The notes under the pieces were generated by a model. The model did not search any database, was not told the origin of the DNA, and was given only the letters and a program-made list of their open reading frames with translations. Source: Promethearchaeota archaeon (lineage in GTDB: Archaea > Asgardarchaeota > Lokiarchaeia > Sigyniarchaeales > SOKP01). Taken from it: a DNA stretch of 63,511 nucleotides. The translations under genes were made by a program, and so were the position numbers. The stretch covers positions 1 through 63,511 of the forward strand of contig JBHLOI010000017.1 of assembly GCA_048940645.1 (NCBI GenBank). Direction: 5' to 3'. Below are positions 51,665 through 61,311 of this stretch, piece by piece (within the stretch, counting starts at the first letter, position 1; the number at the start of each line of letters is the position of its first letter).

Positions 51665-52246
51665 TTAAAATTCTAAAAATCCAGGATCATCAAATATATC
51701 TTCTATTTTTTTTTCCTTTTTTATACTACTTTCGTCGTGTTCAGTAAATAATGATTCTTCATCTGTTTTTATCCCTTTTTCCATCTCCAGTGTTTCTAAA
51801 TGAAGCAAAGCATCTTTTTCCATTTTTTTAAATTCTTCAGCTTTTAATTTCCATTTGTTAACATCATCTATATTTACATCTTCTTCATCTGCTAATAATT
51901 CTGCTGCCTTAACTCTACAAAGATCAGATAAAATTGAATAACATAGGACTAATTCTCCCCATTCATTTTCTTTTTTCAACTTTTCAATTCTTCGTTCTAA
52001 TCTTTGCATTTCTTGATCAGCATAATAGATATCAATAAAATCTCCAAAAGCATCAACAGGTTCAGATATAGAATTGACTAATACTTCCTTTGTTAAACCA
52101 CAATAACCACATTTCACTGTTGCGATAGGACCTTTTCTCATGCCTTCAACCTTTACAGATTTTTCACCGCATGAAGGGCATGTAAAAATTTTTGGTACCT
52201 TCTTCACTCTTTTGTATGTTTGTTGCTTTCTTTTTCTTCTACCCAT
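51665..52246 (-). CDS. elf1: Transcription elongation factor Elf1 with helical/acidic C-terminal extension
   Basis: MGRRKRK...VPKIFTCPSCG..SV.V......A.V.CG.CG........SEPVDAF..FID; ATG at 52246. Confidence 0.9.
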   Translation of the reverse strand: MGRRKRKQQTYKRVKKVPKIFTCPSCGEKSVKVEGMRKGPIATVKCGYCGLTKEVLVNSISEPVDAFGDFIDIYYADQEMQRLERRIEKLKKENEWGELVLCYSILSDLCRVKAAELLADEEDVNIDDVNKWKLKAEEFKKMEKDALLHLETLEMEKGIKTDEESLFTEHDESSIKKEKKIEDIFDDPGFLEF

Positions 52247-52446
52247 GGAAAAACACTTCAATTTAAAATTTCTAAATACATTAACTTAATCAATAACTAA
52301 TTAGAAATTAAAACTAAAAAATTTTCGCTTTTTTAATTGTAAGTTAGAGGAAATCGTAAGATTTTTTAGGAATGTTTAATTACACTAATTACTTTTTTTA
52401 ACCGAAAGAAATATAATGATTTTAATATATTTAGTGGATTTTAGGC

Positions 52447-53547
52447 ATGGAGCATAGAAATTTAACATTGGATTATGATAGAGATTTAATTGATAAAATT
52501 TTTGACGATTTTGATATGAGATATATCATTTTGTTTTTATATATTATTAGAAATGATTTATTTAAAAACTTGGCTGATATTAGCCTTATAGAATCCTATG
52601 AGAGGATTCTAATATTAGATGAAATTTATAAAAGTAATATTAAAAAATTTTGGCAAAAAGAATTTACTGAGATTGCTATTGATTTGGGATTATTTAAAAA
52701 TATTCGAAGTATAATAGAATTTGATCAAAAAGATGATGATTTCATTATTAAATTAGGAGATGAAACCATAACCATAGAAAAAGATACGATTTCTGTGCCT
52801 GTTGATACCCTTTTCTTAATGATAAATAAAAAATTCCAATCGTCATCACGGAGAAATTTTAATCTAGCTCTTACTAAATTAAAAGGAGTTAGATGTGAAT
52901 CGAGTAATGTTATTCATTCTTTAATTTATGAAATAGGAGATCATGATTATACCTTATCTGATGATTTATATTACATTTTAGATCAATATGGTAATATTTA
53001 TCAGGCGATTAAAATAGAAATTACTATTGAAGGGTTTTTTCAAAGATTTAAAGAAATTCAAGATAAAGTCAAGGAATTAATTAACATTTTTGAACCAATC
53101 TTGAACAATAAACCTGTTTTAACAAAAATTTATAAAGCAATAAATGAAGTTAAAGAAATTATAGATTTTCTTAAAGAGGAAAAAGTACAACTCTCTGATA
53201 AATTCAATTTTGATAAAATAGATATTAACAATGAAATTTTCAAAAAGTGGAAGTCATTATTACTTAGTTTACTTAATTTTAGTTTTAAATTAAATGAAAT
53301 TGAAAAAAAAATCCTAGATATTAAGAGAACCTATTCTGGGAAAGGAAAAAAAAATACTTATCTTAAATTTATTGAAAAAGTATCATTTAATGAAGAAAAT
53401 ATTGTTGATAATATTCAGGAATCCTTAGTAAAACTTAGAGGAGATTTGGTTTTAATTAATAATGAAATTTCCAACTTATCTAAAAAGCAAGTAAAATTAT
53501 TAAATCTGGATTATGAAAGATTTATAATAACAAGTAGTGTTGATTAA
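52447..53547 (+). CDS. Hypothetical protein (wHTH-like N-terminal half + coiled coil), first gene of operon
   Basis: RRNFNLALTKLK...LIYE.....YTLS wing-like segment followed by heptad repeats. Confidence 0.75.
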   Translation: MEHRNLTLDYDRDLIDKIFDDFDMRYIILFLYIIRNDLFKNLADISLIESYERILILDEIYKSNIKKFWQKEFTEIAIDLGLFKNIRSIIEFDQKDDDFIIKLGDETITIEKDTISVPVDTLFLMINKKFQSSSRRNFNLALTKLKGVRCESSNVIHSLIYEIGDHDYTLSDDLYYILDQYGNIYQAIKIEITIEGFFQRFKEIQDKVKELINIFEPILNNKPVLTKIYKAINEVKEIIDFLKEEKVQLSDKFNFDKIDINNEIFKKWKSLLLSLLNFSFKLNEIEKKILDIKRTYSGKGKKNTYLKFIEKVSFNEENIVDNIQESLVKLRGDLVLINNEISNLSKKQVKLLNLDYERFIITSSVD

Positions 53548-53549
53548 TC

Positions 53550-54506
53550 TTGAAATGTCCTTCATGTAATGTTGAAATGGAACCATTAGTTGCCGGAATA
53601 TTTCAATGTCCGCAATGTAGAAAAATATTAAAGCAAAAGGAAGAAATAATTGAAAAGATAGAAAAAGAAATCATTAAAGAAGGTGAATTTCGAGATGGTG
53701 AATATTTCCATAAAGAACTTACTTTAAATAAGAAGTATGAAGTCTGTAAAAAGGGAATAGTTATTAATAAAACCTCTAACCGTGTTTTTGCGGTTTTGAT
53801 TTGCGAAAGCCCATATAAAGAAAAATATGTAAGAGTTTCATGGTGGAAAAATTATCAACATGCAGGCATGTTTAAAATTTACGACAGAGATGTACTTAAC
53901 AATACTATTAAAGCATTAGAAAAAATTGATGAATCTTTTGACGATCTATGGCGCTGGTCAGGTAAATATGGAAAATCTGAACCAAAAACCGAAGAAGATT
54001 TAGAAAAAGAAAAAAAAAATGCAATTATTAAAGCTAGAATAATTGAAAATCGTACTTGTCCAAATTGTCAGAAAAAAATGGAAAAAAATAAAACTCATTA
54101 TATATGCCAAAATTGCTCCGAAATTGTAATATTAGAAGGGTATAATCAACCCATTTTTAGTGTTTCTCCAGTAGATCTTGATTTACGTTTTCATAGTAAT
54201 TTTCCAATTAATTTTTACATGCCAGTAAGTGGTATAACTGTGAAGTGGTTAGTAGGAGAATGGAAGGCAATAACAATTATTTATTCTAAAGATAATCCAA
54301 ATAAAAGATGGCTAAGATTTTATTGGTGGATTCGAGATTTAAGTAGTTTTATTAAATTCGGAAAGAGAGAAATGGGTGAAGGGATTCAAATGGGTTGGAA
54401 AGCTCAAAAAGGGATCTCCTCCCCAAATATCTATGATAAGAAATTAATAAAGCCATTAATCAAGGCGCTTAAAAAAACATCTATAGAATTGAATTGGGTC
54501 AATTAA
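53550..54506 (+). CDS. Tandem (Zn ribbon + PC4-like) x2 protein
   Basis: CPSC...CPQC and CPNC...CQNC, each followed by a similar domain (YVRVSWWK...IYD...IKALEK / WLRFYWW...KAQKGIS..IYD...IKALKK). Confidence 0.75.
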   Translation: MKCPSCNVEMEPLVAGIFQCPQCRKILKQKEEIIEKIEKEIIKEGEFRDGEYFHKELTLNKKYEVCKKGIVINKTSNRVFAVLICESPYKEKYVRVSWWKNYQHAGMFKIYDRDVLNNTIKALEKIDESFDDLWRWSGKYGKSEPKTEEDLEKEKKNAIIKARIIENRTCPNCQKKMEKNKTHYICQNCSEIVILEGYNQPIFSVSPVDLDLRFHSNFPINFYMPVSGITVKWLVGEWKAITIIYSKDNPNKRWLRFYWWIRDLSSFIKFGKREMGEGIQMGWKAQKGISSPNIYDKKLIKPLIKALKKTSIELNWVN

Positions 54507-54537
54507 TAAAAGTTTAAATGATAAACAGGTTTAAATT

Positions 54538-55677
54538 ATGTCTGAAATAGAGGATCTGACTTGGAATAAATTACTCCAAGAGTTTGGAAGAAGTTTAGAA
54601 AATGCTATTGAGCATCTTGAAACTAAAGATATTGAAAACATTCCCGGTGCAAAAGAAGCTTTAATCCAAAGATTAAATGATATGAAATTAATTTTCCCTA
54701 AAAATAATGGAGATATATTTATAAAATCTATTAATGATAAGATACAAAATGCTTTTTTTCCAAATACCAAAACTTTTTCTAAGGCCTTTGAGAAGATTTT
54801 AAAATCCAGAACTCATGAACAAGACTTTATTATAAATGAATTATTAAATGGTTTTGTTTCTTCAAAAGCAAAGGCAATTGCTTCAGGAACACAAGCCCCG
54901 ATAATAGATAGGATGGTTGAGGCTTTTAGTAAGAGAAATGATTTTCATATTGTAGATCACCAATTTTTTGCAATGTTTGGAGATCCTAATAAACCTAGAC
55001 ACTTTGTGAAGAAACAGCTCGAAGAATTAATAAATATGTTTGGCTTAATTTCAAAAGAACTTGTTGTAGAAAAAGATGTGAGAACTAGTGAGCAAAAAAC
55101 TTATACTTTTTATACTTTTCCAGGTGATATTATCAAGTTACTTGAAGAAAAATATTTAAATATTGACCAAGAACTAGGATATGCTTATGTTTCAGATGCC
55201 TTTGATAGAAATGTATTCATTTGTATGTTCTTAGCAAATATTGCGATTAATAGGGATGATATGGAAAAAATTGGAGGTGCTTATACTATTAATGGTATTT
55301 CTGCAATATTCGCATTAATAATATTACTGAGTTTTTTACCCAAAATATCAGTCGATGAAACAAACCCAATATTAAATGATCCTAATTATGATGAAACTAA
55401 TATGAGTATTATTCCAAAATCTTGGATGATGAAACAAGTATTAGAATCACTATTCGAACCTCTTATTAAAATTATTGCCTATAGGTTAGGGGGAGGATTA
55501 TGGTTGTCCAAAATAATTGACTCTGAAGTTAATAAAAAAATTATAAACCAGATACGATTTTTGATTAAAGATGTTAATAAATGGATTCTTGGACAGCTAG
55601 TGAGAGTTGAAATACCAATCTTCATTAGTATAGGTAATATACTAACTGAAGTGTTAGTAGGATATGAAGAGGAGTAA
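54538..55677 (+). CDS. Hypothetical protein
   Basis: Long ORF in operon; possible central wHTH (KKQLEELINMFGLISKE...YTFY). Confidence 0.75.
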   Translation: MSEIEDLTWNKLLQEFGRSLENAIEHLETKDIENIPGAKEALIQRLNDMKLIFPKNNGDIFIKSINDKIQNAFFPNTKTFSKAFEKILKSRTHEQDFIINELLNGFVSSKAKAIASGTQAPIIDRMVEAFSKRNDFHIVDHQFFAMFGDPNKPRHFVKKQLEELINMFGLISKELVVEKDVRTSEQKTYTFYTFPGDIIKLLEEKYLNIDQELGYAYVSDAFDRNVFICMFLANIAINRDDMEKIGGAYTINGISAIFALIILLSFLPKISVDETNPILNDPNYDETNMSIIPKSWMMKQVLESLFEPLIKIIAYRLGGGLWLSKIIDSEVNKKIINQIRFLIKDVNKWILGQLVRVEIPIFISIGNILTEVLVGYEEE

Positions 55678-55693
55678 AAAATTATAGTTATCG

Positions 55694-57010
55694 GTGAAAA
55701 GAATGAGTTATAAAAAAAAATCAACAAGAACGGTGAAACCGGGAAGAAAAAGAGAAAAGTGGACTGATTTATTTCCCCGATATTTAACTTTCATTAGTCA
55801 TATGAGACCAATTCTTAGAGAAACCCGAAGAATTATAATTAATCTAGATGCTGATCTTTTATTAGATACAGAAATCTTAGATAAAATTCGCCAAGAAGAA
55901 GAAAAAAGAAATATTCGAAAAGTGAGAGCATTATCAGAATTCTCAGCTATGTACAGATCAAATATTTACGAAATTATTAAGGATTTTATTATAAAATATA
56001 GAGAAAAAATACCGATAATTGATATAAAAGATTATATTGTAGATTTTCTATATGAAGCTGTCAATGCATTAAACGTTTTAAGGCATATCACTAATCCAGA
56101 CGAAGCTAACTTAGAAGATACATACTTATATAATATAACTAAATTTATTGAATCGAGGTTATTTCCGAGAGGTGCGAATTTAAAAATAATCTATGAAAAA
56201 TTATTAAAATTTTCTCAAAATTTTTATGAATGCCAACGCCATACTCTCCAACCACATACTTATTATCGTGAGTTATTAGAAAGCCCTGACTTCTTTGAAA
56301 TACCCGGGATATCTCCGAAAGTATATCAAATTATTAATAATATTATTTCACTTTATAATCTTGATCCGAACTTTGGTGAATTTCCAGAAAAGGAAAATTA
56401 TGAGATCCCCATGATATTAAAGAGTGATATCTTCTTACCTTATATCGATTCAATAGCCAATGCTGAAGAAGAAGCCATAGAAAGCATTGCGGAACGTTTA
56501 GGCCTACGTTTAATTGATAATATTTTTTTAGCTCCCAACGAGGATCTTGTGAAAATATTGTTAGAGAATAACTTTTTACGCGAAAGTAAACAATCTGATG
56601 GTAAAATGAGATTATATCCTCAATTTAGTAATGAAACTTTGTTATTGTATTATTTAGCTTTCGCTTCACAAAGACGTGGATTTCTATCGAAAGAGTTGAT
56701 TAATTGGATATCAATGAATTTTGCTTTTCTGATATATATGGGCATCTTGAAATGGAAATTATCTGATGAAAACATTTTTTACCCAATTTTTAAAGATCTA
56801 CAAACTAATGAGAAAGTTCTTCCATATTTAATGAAATTAATTTGTTTTCCGAATTATTTAGGTCTAGACAAAATGAAAATAAGAGATTCCCCCCAATACA
56901 GAAAAGAAATTTTTAACTTTATGGGAGCTGAAATAGACAATCTGAAAAACCTAATCTCAGAAATAGCAGATTTTTGTGAAAAATTTGATAAGGAAAGAAA
57001 AAATAATTAA
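55694..57010 (+). CDS. Hypothetical protein
   Basis: Long ORF in operon, basic N-terminus. Confidence 0.75.
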   Translation: MKRMSYKKKSTRTVKPGRKREKWTDLFPRYLTFISHMRPILRETRRIIINLDADLLLDTEILDKIRQEEEKRNIRKVRALSEFSAMYRSNIYEIIKDFIIKYREKIPIIDIKDYIVDFLYEAVNALNVLRHITNPDEANLEDTYLYNITKFIESRLFPRGANLKIIYEKLLKFSQNFYECQRHTLQPHTYYRELLESPDFFEIPGISPKVYQIINNIISLYNLDPNFGEFPEKENYEIPMILKSDIFLPYIDSIANAEEEAIESIAERLGLRLIDNIFLAPNEDLVKILLENNFLRESKQSDGKMRLYPQFSNETLLLYYLAFASQRRGFLSKELINWISMNFAFLIYMGILKWKLSDENIFYPIFKDLQTNEKVLPYLMKLICFPNYLGLDKMKIRDSPQYRKEIFNFMGAEIDNLKNLISEIADFCEKFDKERKNN

Positions 57011-57033
57011 CATACAAAAAAAAGAGATGAGGA

Positions 57034-58104
57034 ATTATTAGTAATGAGAAAAAAATTACATATACAGACGATGTTATTAAAGACCGTATAGGTAAATATG
57101 GAGCTGTATACTTTCCTAATGATATTAAAGAAACTGTTGAAGATATACTAGGAAATGAAGTAAAAAAGGAAATATTAGATGATTTTTTCAAAGCTTTAAA
57201 AAAGTATGATGATTTTACAGAACAATTAAAAGAAACTAAATTAAATCCCAGTCTTACAGTTCTTTTATATGGACCGCCTGGTACAGGGAAAACTTCCTTA
57301 ACAAGAGGTTTTGCCAAGAAATATAAAATACCAATATGTGTAGTTGAAACCGATCGACTTGTATCACCTCTATTGGGAGACACTATTAAACAAATAAGAA
57401 GAGTTGTTGACCTGGCTGCTGAAATTGCTCGTGAAAGAGCAGCTTTTATAATATTTTTTGATGAAATTGATGCAATTGGATCTGAACGCTCCAATATTCA
57501 TGAAGTAGGAGAAATTAAGAGAGCTGTCATATCTTTTTTACAGGTTATCGATAGAATTAACTATGAAGGAGTCCCACTAGCAATTTTTGGAGCCACTAAC
57601 CATCAAAACCAATTAGATTCTGCTATTTGGAGGAGATTCACCTTCCATCTTCGATTTGATTTTCCTGATTTCCATTTAAGAAAAAAGATAATTGAGTCAT
57701 TTCTAAATAACATAAAAAAGGCTAAAATTGGCATTGATGAGACAATTTTTACCAAATTAGAAAATGAATATAAGGAACTTCACTCTTTTGAAAAAGATGT
57801 AAAGCGCAAAGTTGGTCATAGAATATCGGAATTTGATAATGAAATCTTATGGAATGAAATAGTTAAAAGAAATAAAGCAGATGGAATTCTAAAACTAACC
57901 CATGGATATTCGGGTTCTGATATTGAAAGAGGTACAAAGGTTTCTCTACTGAAGGCCATGAACACGGAAATTTTAACATACGATATGTTTTATGAAGCAT
58001 TAAAATTAGTTGGCGGAACAGCTATTCATGTTGATCGTCAAAATAATTTGTCAGGCAAATATGGTAAAAAAGTAGAAGAAATTGAGGGTCCTCCAGAAAT
58101 TTAA
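57034..58104 (+). CDS. AAA+ ATPase (classical clade); probable non-canonical ATT start at 57034 or 57037
   Basis: Frame open from stop 57028-57030; contains Walker [13 protein letters not shown] upstream of the ORF-track start, Walker B IFFDEIDAIG, GATN, LDSAIWRRF, GYSGSDI. Confidence 0.9.
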   Translation: MISNEKKITYTDDVIKDRIGKYGAVYFPNDIKETVEDILGNEVKKEILDDFFKALKKYDDFTEQLKETKLNPSLTVLLYGPPGTGKTSLTRGFAKKYKIPICVVETDRLVSPLLGDTIKQIRRVVDLAAEIARERAAFIIFFDEIDAIGSERSNIHEVGEIKRAVISFLQVIDRINYEGVPLAIFGATNHQNQLDSAIWRRFTFHLRFDFPDFHLRKKIIESFLNNIKKAKIGIDETIFTKLENEYKELHSFEKDVKRKVGHRISEFDNEILWNEIVKRNKADGILKLTHGYSGSDIERGTKVSLLKAMNTEILTYDMFYEALKLVGGTAIHVDRQNNLSGKYGKKVEEIEGPPEI

Positions 58105-58113
58105 ACTCAGATT

Positions 58114-59178
58114 TTGAAATATTTTTATTTAACGGAAAAGATGAACAGCACTTTATTTGATCTGGATAAAATTAAGGAATTAACCTTACCAATTGAAGAT
58201 CTTCAGATAAAAATTAATAAATTGAATGATCTTAAAAAAATACTAGTTCAGGATAAAGATAATTTAATAGAATATATTAATGATAATGAGTTAATGAATC
58301 AATATCAAGAACTAATTGTTAATATAGAAAATTTCCATAATCAATTAATTAAAGTTTCAAAAGAAAATTTAAATACTTACTTTCTTTATCAAGACAAACT
58401 TATAAATAAATATAAAGAAGCATTTAAAGAGAAATTAAGAATTGCAAAAATAAATCAAAAGGTTACTAAAAATATTGGAGTAAAATTAATTGAGAATAGA
58501 GAAGTTTGTAAGCTTATTGACAAAGTTTCATTTATCCCCTCAATTGAATTAAACCAATGGCTAGATATAATAGATTCCTTGAATCAATATTCAATTTTTT
58601 TAAAAACTATAAAAAAAGTATCAAAATTCTATAATGTATTAATTAATGAGAAGTTTAATAAGAAACTGAGTGAAATTCCTAAAGACACAGATGGTAAATT
58701 GATAGAAAATTATAAAAAAGCATTTTTAAAAAACAACAATTTGAGTTTTGTTGAATTTATCCAAGAGATGGAACGTAAACTCTCACAAGAAGATTTAAAA
58801 GTTCAGGAGCAGATTATTCAAAAAGCTAAAGAAAAAGAAGAGATTGAAAAATTAAAAAAAAAGCAAAAAGAACAGCAAGAAGGTTATCAAAATTATCTAA
58901 ATTTATCTGAAAGTGAATTTGAAAGATTGAGACGAAGGAAGAAAAGGGAAAAGTTGGAAGATGTTTCTATTAAACCAAAAAAGCTTAATGAAATCGAAAT
59001 ACCAGAAGATATCTCTAAAAAGATTGAGGAGTTTAAATCTAAATTTGAAATTTCTTTCCATAAAAATCATTTGATTGAAGAAAATGAAAATAGAGACCCA
59101 TTAGAGTTAATTCGGGAAAGGAAAAAACAGAAGGAAAAGGAATATAAAAAGTTTAAAAAACATTTTGAAGATATATAA
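58114..59178 (+). CDS. Coiled-coil, highly charged hypothetical protein
   Basis: Heptads; motif YL.LSE.EFERLRR; start may be ATG 58141. Confidence 0.75.
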   Translation: MKYFYLTEKMNSTLFDLDKIKELTLPIEDLQIKINKLNDLKKILVQDKDNLIEYINDNELMNQYQELIVNIENFHNQLIKVSKENLNTYFLYQDKLINKYKEAFKEKLRIAKINQKVTKNIGVKLIENREVCKLIDKVSFIPSIELNQWLDIIDSLNQYSIFLKTIKKVSKFYNVLINEKFNKKLSEIPKDTDGKLIENYKKAFLKNNNLSFVEFIQEMERKLSQEDLKVQEQIIQKAKEKEEIEKLKKKQKEQQEGYQNYLNLSESEFERLRRRKKREKLEDVSIKPKKLNEIEIPEDISKKIEEFKSKFEISFHKNHLIEENENRDPLELIRERKKQKEKEYKKFKKHFEDI

Positions 59179-59201
59179 AAAATTATTAAAGTGATTTCAA
59201 A

Positions 59202-60803
59202 ATTCAGAAAATTAATTTTACATTAATCCTAGGTACTGAAAAAATAGCCATTAAAGATAACTTCACCCTAATAAAAGGTAAATTCAAAATTAATGCGGTA
59301 GATCAATATCAAATGAATAGCTTTTTAGAATTTTGTGATGATTTAAATTTAATTCCACTTGAAAATTTTCTTAATATTCTAAATAAAAATACAAACAATT
59401 TTAGAGATTTAGAAAAAGCTCTAAATCTTCTAAAATTAATTACTAATCAATCTAAAGTTATAAAAAGTAATGTAGAGCTTTTATCTGAGTATATTGATAT
59501 TTTGGAGTTATTAATTCTAACTACAAAATTTAAAATATTAGAGAGGAAAAAAGAAAAGTTAAAATTAGAATTGGAAATAGCAAAAAATTATAAAAAGTCA
59601 AGCGATTTAACTGCAGTTTCAGATTTATTGAAAAAGTTAAATAAATCCATAGAAAATAATAAAATAAAGGCCAAATATTTAGAGGAAGATTATTATCACC
59701 ATAAAAACCAAGTTGATCAAATTAAAAAAACTATAGAAAATCATAATTTAGAAATCAAACATTTAAATGATCAAAAGAAGATGATTTTCACCCAAATTAA
59801 TAAAATTTCGCGTCAAACTGAAGACTCAGCAGCTTTGAGTAAAGATGATGCTTTAAAAAACTTAGGAATTAAGATTAACATTCCAAATTCAGAAAAGATT
59901 CGTAAGCTACAATTAAAAGCCAAAGAACTTTCATTTAATATTAAGCAAATTGAATCTAAGAAGGAAAAAACTAATTTAAAATTAGAAGAAATAAATCCTA
60001 AATATGAAATTTATAAAACCGATTATGAAAAACTCTTAAACATAATTACTAGAGACGAAGAAAAAGCTAAGGAATTACAATTAGAATTAAAAAAAAAATT
60101 AGAAGAAACTGATAAAGATTTGGTGAAAGAAAAGGATACAATAGATTTAACAACGCTAAGATCTCTGACTCAAATTGATGAAGATATAAAAAGAGTTGAT
60201 TTAGAATTGACTGGGATAATAAAATCAGGGAATTTAGATGATATTAAAAGTAAACGAGATTTTTCATTTATCAATGAAAAATTAGAGACATTGTCTAAAC
60301 GTTTTACTCAAAAGTTTAATAAATTAGATATAACCTCAAATAAGAAAAAATTTTTAAAAGCTTTTGAGAGTTATCGGAAATTTGAGCTCATTTTGGATGA
60401 TTTAGAAAGATTTCTTAACATTATGCTATCACAAATTAATTTAATAATAAAGTTTCAAATTCTTATTGACAAAAAACATACTAAATTTTTCATAAATCCT
60501 TTCTTTAAAAGAAATAATAAAGAAGAAATAAAATTTGATGAATTAACAACTCCCGAAAAGGTTTTCTTTATAGTAGTTTTATACATTTCAATAAATATTA
60601 TTTTAGATGAAAAGAACATTACTTTTTCAAATTTATTTATTCCAAAGGATTATAATAAAGGGGGTTCTATTTTAAGAACAATTAGAAAGATTCTACCCCT
60701 TTTTAGAAGTAAAGAGAATTTGAAAGATTTTAAATTAATTTTCATAATGTCAAGCATTGAAATCAAAAAGGAAATTAAAAATATAAAAATAATTCAAATT
60801 TAA
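59202..60803 (+). CDS. Degenerate SMC-like protein (split ABC-head remnants flanking a long coiled coil)
   Basis: Frame open from 59190: FKIQKINF.....EKIAIKDNFTLIKGKF (SMC N-lobe-like, no GKS); C-lobe IKFDELTTPEKVFFIVVLY...ITFSNLF replaces LSGGEK and Walker B; start uncertain (ATT 59202 or ATG 59313). Confidence 0.6.
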   Translation: MQKINFTLILGTEKIAIKDNFTLIKGKFKINAVDQYQMNSFLEFCDDLNLIPLENFLNILNKNTNNFRDLEKALNLLKLITNQSKVIKSNVELLSEYIDILELLILTTKFKILERKKEKLKLELEIAKNYKKSSDLTAVSDLLKKLNKSIENNKIKAKYLEEDYYHHKNQVDQIKKTIENHNLEIKHLNDQKKMIFTQINKISRQTEDSAALSKDDALKNLGIKINIPNSEKIRKLQLKAKELSFNIKQIESKKEKTNLKLEEINPKYEIYKTDYEKLLNIITRDEEKAKELQLELKKKLEETDKDLVKEKDTIDLTTLRSLTQIDEDIKRVDLELTGIIKSGNLDDIKSKRDFSFINEKLETLSKRFTQKFNKLDITSNKKKFLKAFESYRKFELILDDLERFLNIMLSQINLIIKFQILIDKKHTKFFINPFFKRNNKEEIKFDELTTPEKVFFIVVLYISINIILDEKNITFSNLFIPKDYNKGGSILRTIRKILPLFRSKENLKDFKLIFIMSSIEIKKEIKNIKIIQI

Positions 60804-60816
60804 GAGAGATAGAATT

Positions 60817-61311
60817 ATGGAAAACAATGAATATGAAGAAACTGTTAAATTAATTACAAAATTAATTTTAACCCAACCACAAAAAATGATTAGAGAAGAG
60901 GATTTACAGAATCTATCAAAAAATTTTAATTTTGAAAAAATTATGAGTAATGTCTATCTGAGTTTAAAAAATGTTGGTTTTGAATTTATTAAAACAAAAT
61001 TACACAGTGATACGTACTACATTCTAACATCTGAAGGAAAAGATGATAATATTTCACCTTCACAATATGGAACATTAGCTTTACTTATAGCTATGAGCAA
61101 AGAAGTCGATGAGAATTTAAAAATTAAAGATTTAAAGGAGATTTTTTCTGAAGTATGGGAATCAGATGTAGAATTTTTACTTAAAAATGATTATTTAAGA
61201 AAAATAGAAGATTTAGGTGTTATAGTAGTGAGCCCTTTAGGCAAAGCACTGATGAAAAATATTATTCAAGACCTAGATTTAAAGAATCTAATAGATATCT
61301 TTACAAATTAA
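60817..61311 (+). CDS. Tandem winged-helix protein, KITE-like (ScpB/MukE/Nse1-3-like)
   Basis: MSNVY.SLKNVGFEFIK......YYIL....ISPSQYGTLALLI.....LKI.DL......VEFLLKNDYLRK......VSPLGK. Confidence 0.6.
   Translation: MENNEYEETVKLITKLILTQPQKMIREEDLQNLSKNFNFEKIMSNVYLSLKNVGFEFIKTKLHSDTYYILTSEGKDDNISPSQYGTLALLIAMSKEVDENLKIKDLKEIFSEVWESDVEFLLKNDYLRKIEDLGVIVVSPLGKALMKNIIQDLDLKNLIDIFTN

Follow-up and report, generated by a model that had tools for sequence, protein, structure and literature searches.

Can the scaffold of a structural maintenance of chromosomes (SMC) complex serve a cell after the loss of its motor? SMC complexes are thought to act through their own ATPase heads, and for this reason a conserved SMC protein without ATP motifs is unexpected. 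Such a protein appears to be encoded by g7, the seventh of eight plus-strand genes (g1 to g8; positions 52447-61311) on contig JBHLOI010000017.1 of a Promethearchaeota archaeon (GenBank assembly GCA_048940645.1), the 63,511 nucleotides of which we refer to as the window. Devoid of motifs, yet conserved, evidently selected and coupled to an AAA+ ATPase, g7 offers a test of what an SMC scaffold can do without a motor. A first-pass annotation had described the operon as a divergent SMC–kite system with an AAA+ ATPase, a description that structure prediction, fold searches, motif alignment and synteny now bear out. We conclude, with a probability of roughly 0.7, that Loki-type Asgard archaea carry this locus as a resident, lineage-specific operon, and that it is a motor-less SMC–kleisin–kite derivative of an operon with a Smc5/6-like SMC.

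Stand-alone structure predictions cover g7 and g8. The AlphaFold2 model of g7, based on an alignment of 41 sequences, has a predicted local distance difference test (pLDDT) score of 83.5 and consists of three N-terminal strands (residues 6-26), two long helices (68-204 and 229-412) and an α/β C-terminal lobe (414-532). This is the architecture of the SMC superfamily, in which N- and C-terminal head lobes are joined by an antiparallel coiled coil; here the coiled coil extends for about 135 residues per arm, and the N lobe has shrunk to about 65 residues ahead of the arm. The top 50 Foldseek matches were all Rad50, JetC, Smc5/6, Smc, LmuB, MukB or cohesin (E values of 1.7e-7 to 2e-3), and VIA-align superposed both head lobes on Smc5/6 heads (8i4w_A; Z 12.7, root-mean-square deviation (rmsd) 5.0 over 284 residues). 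The model thus contains the ABC/SMC-type head that would have to be absent from 59202-60803 for the first-pass reading to fail.

The motifs for ATP binding and hydrolysis are missing from all 41 sequences. No match to Walker A (GxxGxGK[ST]) was found; the site is occupied by G26-K-F-K (variants GRLR and GNIK), which is too short and never includes GKS/T. Neither the ABC signature nor the D-E of Walker B has a match in g7, and their positions hold an invariant LTTPEK (448-453) and an invariant S476-N477, respectively. This register is backed by hhalign comparisons with intact SMCs. The hinge has left no trace either: at the apex, the two helices of the arm are joined by some 25 residues (205-228) that form a turn and a single short helix, and there is no Pfam SMC_hinge match. 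Predicted fold and motif alignment together show that g7 keeps the split head and antiparallel coiled coil but no longer has the hinge, roughly half of the arm or any of the ATP motifs, in agreement with the earlier description of a degenerate SMC-like protein with dead motifs.

Losses of this extent might mean that g6 and g7 are drifting towards pseudogenes and that only g3, g4 and g5 still work, in a role unrelated to SMC. The two genes are indeed the fastest-evolving of the operon within the genus (32-60% identity), and the disappearance of every g7 ATPase motif, together with the partial erosion of the motifs of a longer relative described below, would suit such decay. However, g7 is intact at 532-537 amino acids, without stops, in every genome sampled, its predicted fold is confident, and its unusual start codon and the Shine–Dalgarno-like element before it are conserved. 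Across the 41 sequences, 21 positions are invariant and about 48 are near-invariant; the invariant residues are concentrated where the motifs used to be, within NKxGSIxRT (485-493) and near the arm apex (163-240), a pattern that speaks for selection on a non-catalytic role. We therefore consider a decaying remnant very improbable.

The second candidate component of an SMC complex is g8, for which AlphaFold2 predicts (pLDDT 84.4) two consecutive winged helices, WH1 (2-70) and WH2 (81-138), the arrangement that defines a kite. The top eight Foldseek matches are MAGE, Nse1 or Nse3 proteins (best E 1.6e-4), with ScpB, JetB and the ESCRT-II subunit Vps22 (E 6.6e-3) lower in the list. The top five VIA matches are Nse3/MAGE proteins, with Z scores of 9.9-10.5 over 141-150 residues, and matches to single winged helices have Z scores of 8.4 or less. 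At these moderate scores, the closest structural relatives of g8 are kites over both domains, and the model shows g8 to be an Nse3/MAGE-like kite. The tandem winged helix-turn-helix (wHTH), kite-like protein proposed at 60817-61311, whose absence had been named as a reason to abandon the reading, is therefore seen in the model.

The presence of Vps22 in this list, together with the similarity of the AAA+ ATPase g5 to CdvC/Vps4 (4e-23), raises another explanation, namely an ESCRT-II/Vps4-like winged-helix assembly in which g8 would correspond to Vps25/Vps22, g5 to Vps4, and g7 would be a mere coiled coil, the long helices of which supply much of its structural score. We find this the hardest of all the explanations to credit. 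Nse3/MAGE kites rank above ESCRT-II in both aligners and span both winged-helix units, the head lobes of g7 fit those of Smc5/6, and Pfam detects neither a Snf7/ESCRT-III protein nor a MIT domain in the operon. Moreover, a true SMC holds the place of g7 in distant versions of the operon.

These distant versions are found at five loci: on a Helarchaeota contig (L124), a soil metagenome contig (L109), two contigs of Promethearchaeota metagenome-assembled genomes (L108 and L125) and in a complete genome of the sister family (L128). The g3-like, g4-like and AAA+ genes always occur in that order on contigs with distant members. Next after the AAA+ gene is one for an SMC of 1034-1087 amino acids, except that in L108 an opposite-strand g2-like gene separates the two. 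In four of the five loci the long SMC keeps the motifs GxNGxGKS, HSxGQK and IDEFD, and that of L109 also has a Pfam SMC_hinge match. Downstream are a protein X (about 290-320 amino acids; multiple wHTH domains by eye) and then a protein Y (about 280-325 amino acids), in which we infer a kleisin-like protein from N- and C-terminal patterns recognized by eye. A g8 homologue (162-176 amino acids) closes four of the loci (hidden Markov model (HMM) matches of 6.5e-15, 3e-9 and 2e-5; hhalign 2.8e-6), and the L108 contig ends within X.

HMMs built from the genus recognize g1, g3, g4, g5 and g8 in the long operons. The g1 model matches the opening genes of L124 (2e-9), L125 (5e-9), L108 (2e-6) and L109 (7e-4), and the g3 model matches in all distant operons (E 1e-11 to 1e-141). 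Three long operons are adjoined by g2-like zinc-ribbon genes on the opposite strand (L128:4483-5460, L124:18018-18464 and L108:9603-10607); the one in L124 is a half-length form with a single repeat. The order of g1, g3, g4, g5 and g8 is thus the same whether the SMC to which they are linked is the short dead or the long one; g2 is linked too, in varying orientation.

The short and long SMC profiles can be aligned directly. With hhalign, the g7 profile matches that of the long operon SMCs at E 1.5e-4, and at E 4.3e-5 (probability 69%) when sister-family sequences are added. The alignment is colinear, with LTTPEK on HSTGQK and, in the first of these comparisons, YNKGGS on the D-loop FDKGLD. The best Protein Data Bank (PDB) relative of the Helarchaeota SMC over its full length is Smc6 (2.2e-14), and heads of canonical Smc score 6e-14; g7 itself is too eroded to place. 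In L125, the motifs of the 1034-amino-acid SMC (L125:12876-15980) are partly eroded and read GKYEVDKK at Walker A, HDDLHKQ at the signature and LDLS at Walker B; this protein may represent a stage between the intact long form and the dead short one. The short dead form, with g6, is shared by the family of the window and by most of its sister family, two complete genomes among them.

Short operons have no X or Y genes. Instead they have g6, which occurs only beside the short-form SMC, and the kleisin-looking Y is confined to long-SMC operons. In a complex model, g6 and g7 gave an interaction prediction score from aligned errors (ipSAE) of 0.61, compared with 0.00 for the best control, with runs agreeing in at least 66% of contacts and a partner pLDDT of about 60. 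Among solved complexes, 58 of 80 reach that ipSAE mark, as do 2 of 110 mismatched pairs; with self-made alignments these counts are only rough. In the modelled interface, two long helices of g6 (11-99) lie against the part of the g7 coiled coil next to the head (76-119 and 353-392) and against strands of the head itself (419-429), so that the N-terminal helices of g6 would sit on the g7 neck like the N-domain of a kleisin. No confident contact with g7 is predicted past g6 residue 99, and the charged C-terminal tail is absent from sister-family orthologues.

A kleisin had been sought among the wHTH proteins of the operon; the best kleisin-like candidate in the window is instead the coiled-coil protein g6, which may stand in for the kleisin missing from short operons. 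Two other assignments were discarded: g1 as the kleisin (no similarity to Y) and g6 as an X or Y gene that has moved from its place in the long operons (hhalign E 0.14-0.74). A further comparison aligned g6 residues 16-164 (window positions 58141-58650) with the distal arm and the start of the hinge of the long SMC (E 0.006-0.01, probability 4-6%); this is probably coiled-coil noise, but it would also be consistent with g6 having arisen from the central part of the SMC that was deleted.

We next consider how the operon is distributed. The order of all eight genes and of both flanks is identical in the 14 of 14 loci fetched from the genus, and the same order recurs in the two complete sister-family genomes, so that the gene order, which the first-pass annotation had taken as a possible point of failure, is conserved. 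Within the genus, g7 is single copy in 23 of 24 genomes (34-80% identity). Identities are 71-88% for g3, g4 and g5 (75-86%, 79-88% and 71-82%, respectively) and 54-80% for g1, g2 and g8 (60-75% for g1); g6 has 36-60%. We surveyed 400 genomes of the phylum with a g4 profile (E 1e-5). It matched in 115 of 134 and 12 of 14 genomes of two families of one order, nearly always in single copy, and gave no match in 252 genomes from 31 other families. An exhaustive search with the g4 profile returned 34 representative clusters among 1.84 billion proteins. The position of g4 is invariably between g3 and the AAA+ gene, contigs with distant members included. A pattern scan of genome contigs with g3 reached only relatives of at least 71% identity. 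Housekeeping genes flank the operon (Elf1, Lsm, a HypB-like GTPase and a radical SAM enzyme), without marks of mobile elements. In each of the 13 genus loci that reach it, the Elf1-type zinc-ribbon elongation factor (51665-52261, minus strand), which has a coiled-coil tail, is transcribed divergently from the operon. Being single copy and near-universal in two families, the operon behaves as a core gene set rather than a defence island.

The AAA+ ATPase is the component that most invites comparison with defence. Its Walker A (GPPGTGKT) and Walker B (DEID) motifs are intact and it matches Pfam AAA at 1.2e-25, as expected of the classical AAA+ ATPase recognized at the outset. Its PADLOC match is IetA (1e-57), and its NCBIfam match, IteA, scores 177.5 bits, well under the equivalog cut-off of 510. 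One could therefore imagine anti-virus or anti-plasmid defence of the Wadjet, Lamassu or IetAS kind, with an SMC-like sensor of foreign DNA and a response driven by the AAA+ protein; JetC and LmuB are in the g7 fold list, the long operon SMC matches LmuB models at 1.4e-18, and short SMC-like proteins are typical of Lamassu. However, the operon encodes no nuclease, protease or other effector, and the only significant PADLOC match is that of the AAA+ protein. Defence systems are usually mobile and patchy, whereas this is a single-copy, near-universal set at a fixed site among housekeeping genes, in which g3, g4 and g5 are strongly conserved. We regard defence as unlikely. Of the two roles first suggested, chromosome maintenance or defence, the second is thus less favoured: because the genes are single copy, near-universal in two families and set in a housekeeping neighbourhood, a role in the organization or maintenance of the chromosome is the likely one.

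Several observations weigh against reading the locus as a motor-less SMC–kleisin–kite operon. Direct HMM searches with g7 (Pfam and PDB profiles) retrieve no SMC and at most weak coiled-coil matches, and the homology of g7 to SMC proteins rests on fold, operon position and a moderate hhalign score. The g6–g7 model derives from shallow, self-made alignments, and long helices can bundle spuriously in such models. No C-terminal winged helix was seen in g6, which also has no kleisin-family match in Pfam, NCBIfam or PADLOC and no similarity to Y (hhalign E 0.14-0.48). Since the flanking genes are conserved as well, part of the constancy of gene order within the genus reflects simple synteny. The nearest relative of g5 is a defence ATPase, IetA, so that a link to defence is conceivable, and the function proposed here is read from the architecture of the operon.

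The remaining proteins give few clues through homology. Pfam, NCBIfam, PHROGs and PADLOC returned nothing informative for g1, g3, g4, g6 and g8; profile searches against PDB sequences with g1, g2, g3, g4, g7, g8, X and Y gave no significant match; and look-ups of g4 and g6 in the ESM Atlas gave no usable one. In g2, each half has a CxxC...CxxC zinc ribbon (Pfam Zn_ribbon_6, 1.7e-5, and DZR), with invariant cysteine pairs and WW motifs. Residues 254-272 of g3 (window positions 55297-55353) have a Kyte–Doolittle mean of 2.27 over 19 residues and may either anchor the complex in the membrane or form a buried core helix. By eye, the distant g3 homologue of L107 has an equivalent hydrophobic stretch. 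That g3 and g4 act as loaders in the manner of Nse5/6 is speculation.

From these parts we can sketch how the motor-less operon might work. Together, g7, g6 and g8 would form a passive scaffold that holds or bridges DNA, with contacts to nucleic acid provided by the wHTH-like g1 and the zinc ribbons of g2, and the assembly could be tethered to the membrane through g3. The AAA+ ATPase, already the partner of an ATP-driven ancestor, would now perform the sole nucleotide-driven step, probably the loading, release or remodelling of the scaffold. In its full form, this would be a chromosome machine of Loki-type Asgard archaea with a purely structural SMC, all energy from a dedicated AAA+ ATPase, and the lineage-specific g1-g4 as modules for DNA binding, loading or tethering; we offer this version tentatively and would not yet bet on it. 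If true, it would be a new operating principle for an SMC–kleisin–kite complex. The ATP-competent sister operon would then complete a natural before-and-after pair, and might allow a view of accessory factors joining Smc5/6 before eukaryotes. Because the host belongs to the archaeal lineage closest to eukaryotes and the operon has probable kinship with the Smc5/6 branch, the locus bears on the origin of the eukaryotic SMC repertoire and its accessory subunits. If either of the complete sister-family genomes with the short form is that of a cultured strain, the question would become accessible to experiment.

The gene map depends on the choice of start codons (Table 1), which we judged by aligning the gene junctions of 14 orthologous loci (15 genomes, including that of the window). 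The open frames of g5 and g7 have no ATG, GTG or TTG at their heads. The g7 frame is open from 59190. At the codon aligned to 59202, 11 of 15 genomes have ATT and one has ATG; the others have ATC, ATA or GTT. A Shine–Dalgarno-like GGAGTGA/AGTGAT lies 7-9 nucleotides upstream and is conserved with the ATT start. A start of the SMC-like gene near 59202, as first suggested, is therefore well founded. At the g5 start, the alignment column of 57037 shows ATT in 11 of 15, ATG in four and ATA in one; a homopolymer error in the A7 run at 57049-57055 was dropped as an explanation because the aligned ATT/ATG start is conserved. Orthologue alignment places the start of g6 at a conserved ATG (58141) instead of the TTG at 58114. 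With these starts the intergenic gaps are 2, 31, 16, 26, 36, 23 and 13 nucleotides; the eight co-oriented genes stand as first described, and the range of gaps widens from about 2-31 to 2-36 nucleotides. TTG opens g2 and GTG opens g4, and these unusual starts, with the ATT of g5 and g7, may set subunit stoichiometry. Annotators truncate or mis-start g5 and g7.

Table 1. Genes of the operon, with positions in the window
Gene	Position	Strand	Product
g1	52447..53547	+	366 amino acids; wHTH-like N-terminal region (by reading), helical C-terminal half; no family match
g2	53550..54506	+	318 amino acids; internal duplication, with a zinc ribbon and a Trp-rich beta domain per half
g3	54538..55677	+	379 amino acids; highly conserved, single strongly hydrophobic stretch; no family match
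g4	55694..57010	+	438 amino acids; best conserved of the proteins without a family match
g5	57037..58104	+	Classical-clade AAA+ ATPase, intact Walker A and Walker B, conserved ATT start
g6	58141..59178	+	345 amino acids; helical N-terminal domain, basic and highly charged tail; candidate kleisin-like neck binder of g7
g7	59202..60803	+	533 amino acids; predicted SMC-shaped pseudo-ATPase with reduced head and no hinge, conserved ATT start
g8	60817..61311	+	164 amino acids; predicted tandem winged-helix protein of the Nse3/MAGE-like kite type

The operon is not the only SMC locus of its genome, which also encodes a true SMC of 1156 amino acids with a hinge, an SMC_N protein of 1482 amino acids and, at the edge of a contig, an SMC fragment some 6 kb away from ScpB. 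Since true SMCs are encoded elsewhere, g7 is an additional, specialized paralogue, one SMC among several in the cell. The 1156-amino-acid SMC lies on contig C57 (L121:5629-11535) in an operon with proteins of 419, 216 and 175 amino acids, in the order 419, SMC, 216, 175. The last of these is weakly similar to g8 (hhalign E 0.017), and the operon may be another SMC–kleisin–kite set. Pfam ScpA was not found in this genome (89.6% complete). Directly upstream of ScpB and near the SMC fragment, contig C68 encodes a 334-amino-acid protein (L123:4941-5945) with an Ish1/HeH-LEM-like motif (Pfam, 8e-6), which may be a divergent ScpA with a eukaryote-like DNA-binding motif.

How, then, does the operon compare with known systems? 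With IetAS, which pairs the AAA+ protein IetA with the protease IetS, it shares an ATPase most similar to IetA models. However, g5 falls under the equivalog cut-off, there is no subtilase partner (Pfam finds no peptidase domain in any of the eight genes) and the two sit in entirely different gene contexts. Lamassu (LmuB) and Wadjet (JetABCD) also have a short or divergent SMC-like protein, and both appear in the g7 fold list; Wadjet adds a kite and a kleisin to its SMC. The SMCs of Lamassu and Wadjet have active ATPase motifs and act with a nuclease effector, and the systems are patchy and mobile, whereas the operon described here is without an effector and behaves as a core gene set. Across the eight genes, the sole PADLOC match to a Jet protein was that of the g7 coiled coil to JetC (0.004), and, as had been noted from the start, no Toprim nuclease (JetD) was matched.

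Eukaryotic Smc5/6 with Nse1–Nse3–Nse4 also shares features with the operon. The structural relatives nearest to g8 are Nse3/MAGE and Nse1, the head of g7 superposes best on those of Smc5 and Smc6, and the modelled position of g6 on the g7 neck would match the kleisin-on-neck arrangement. By contrast, the SMC here is ATPase-dead by its motifs, and there is neither a RING/SUMO ligase subunit nor a heterodimer of SMC paralogues. To our knowledge, an AAA+ ATPase is not a component of Smc5/6.

The closest published counterparts are archaeal. SMC5/6-related archaeal SMCs have been described (Yoshinaga & Inagaki 2021, PMC8665677). For TACK and Asgard archaea, van Hooff et al. (bioRxiv 10.1101/2024.01.07.573240) describe SMC–kleisin–kite operons, among them what may be a third Asgard copy that has an Nse3-like kite. 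The phylogenies of Yoshinaga & Inagaki took only sequences that span the conserved N- and C-terminal motif blocks, so that g7 would fall outside their sampling. Text searches found no AAA+ partner in van Hooff et al. and a dead or degenerate SMC in neither paper, and our literature search returned no paper that combines Asgard, kite, SMC and AAA+, and none that describes this operon. The initial impression of a system not yet described thus holds for the operon itself, although related archaeal operons of the SMC5/6 type, without the AAA+ block or a dead SMC, have been published. As in these archaeal operons, an SMC-type protein stands beside an Nse1/3-type kite in the same host lineage, and the long versions have an SMC for which Smc6 is the closest solved structure, then a kleisin-looking gene and a kite. 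Unlike them, the short operon has an SMC that is half-length, hingeless and motif-dead, without a recognizable kleisin, and the operon always includes the AAA+ ATPase, g1, g3 and g4, usually with g2 nearby, a set of which we found no mention in either paper. What is new relative to the published SMC5/6-related operons is a dead SMC permanently coupled to an AAA+ ATPase and to the four proteins g1-g4.

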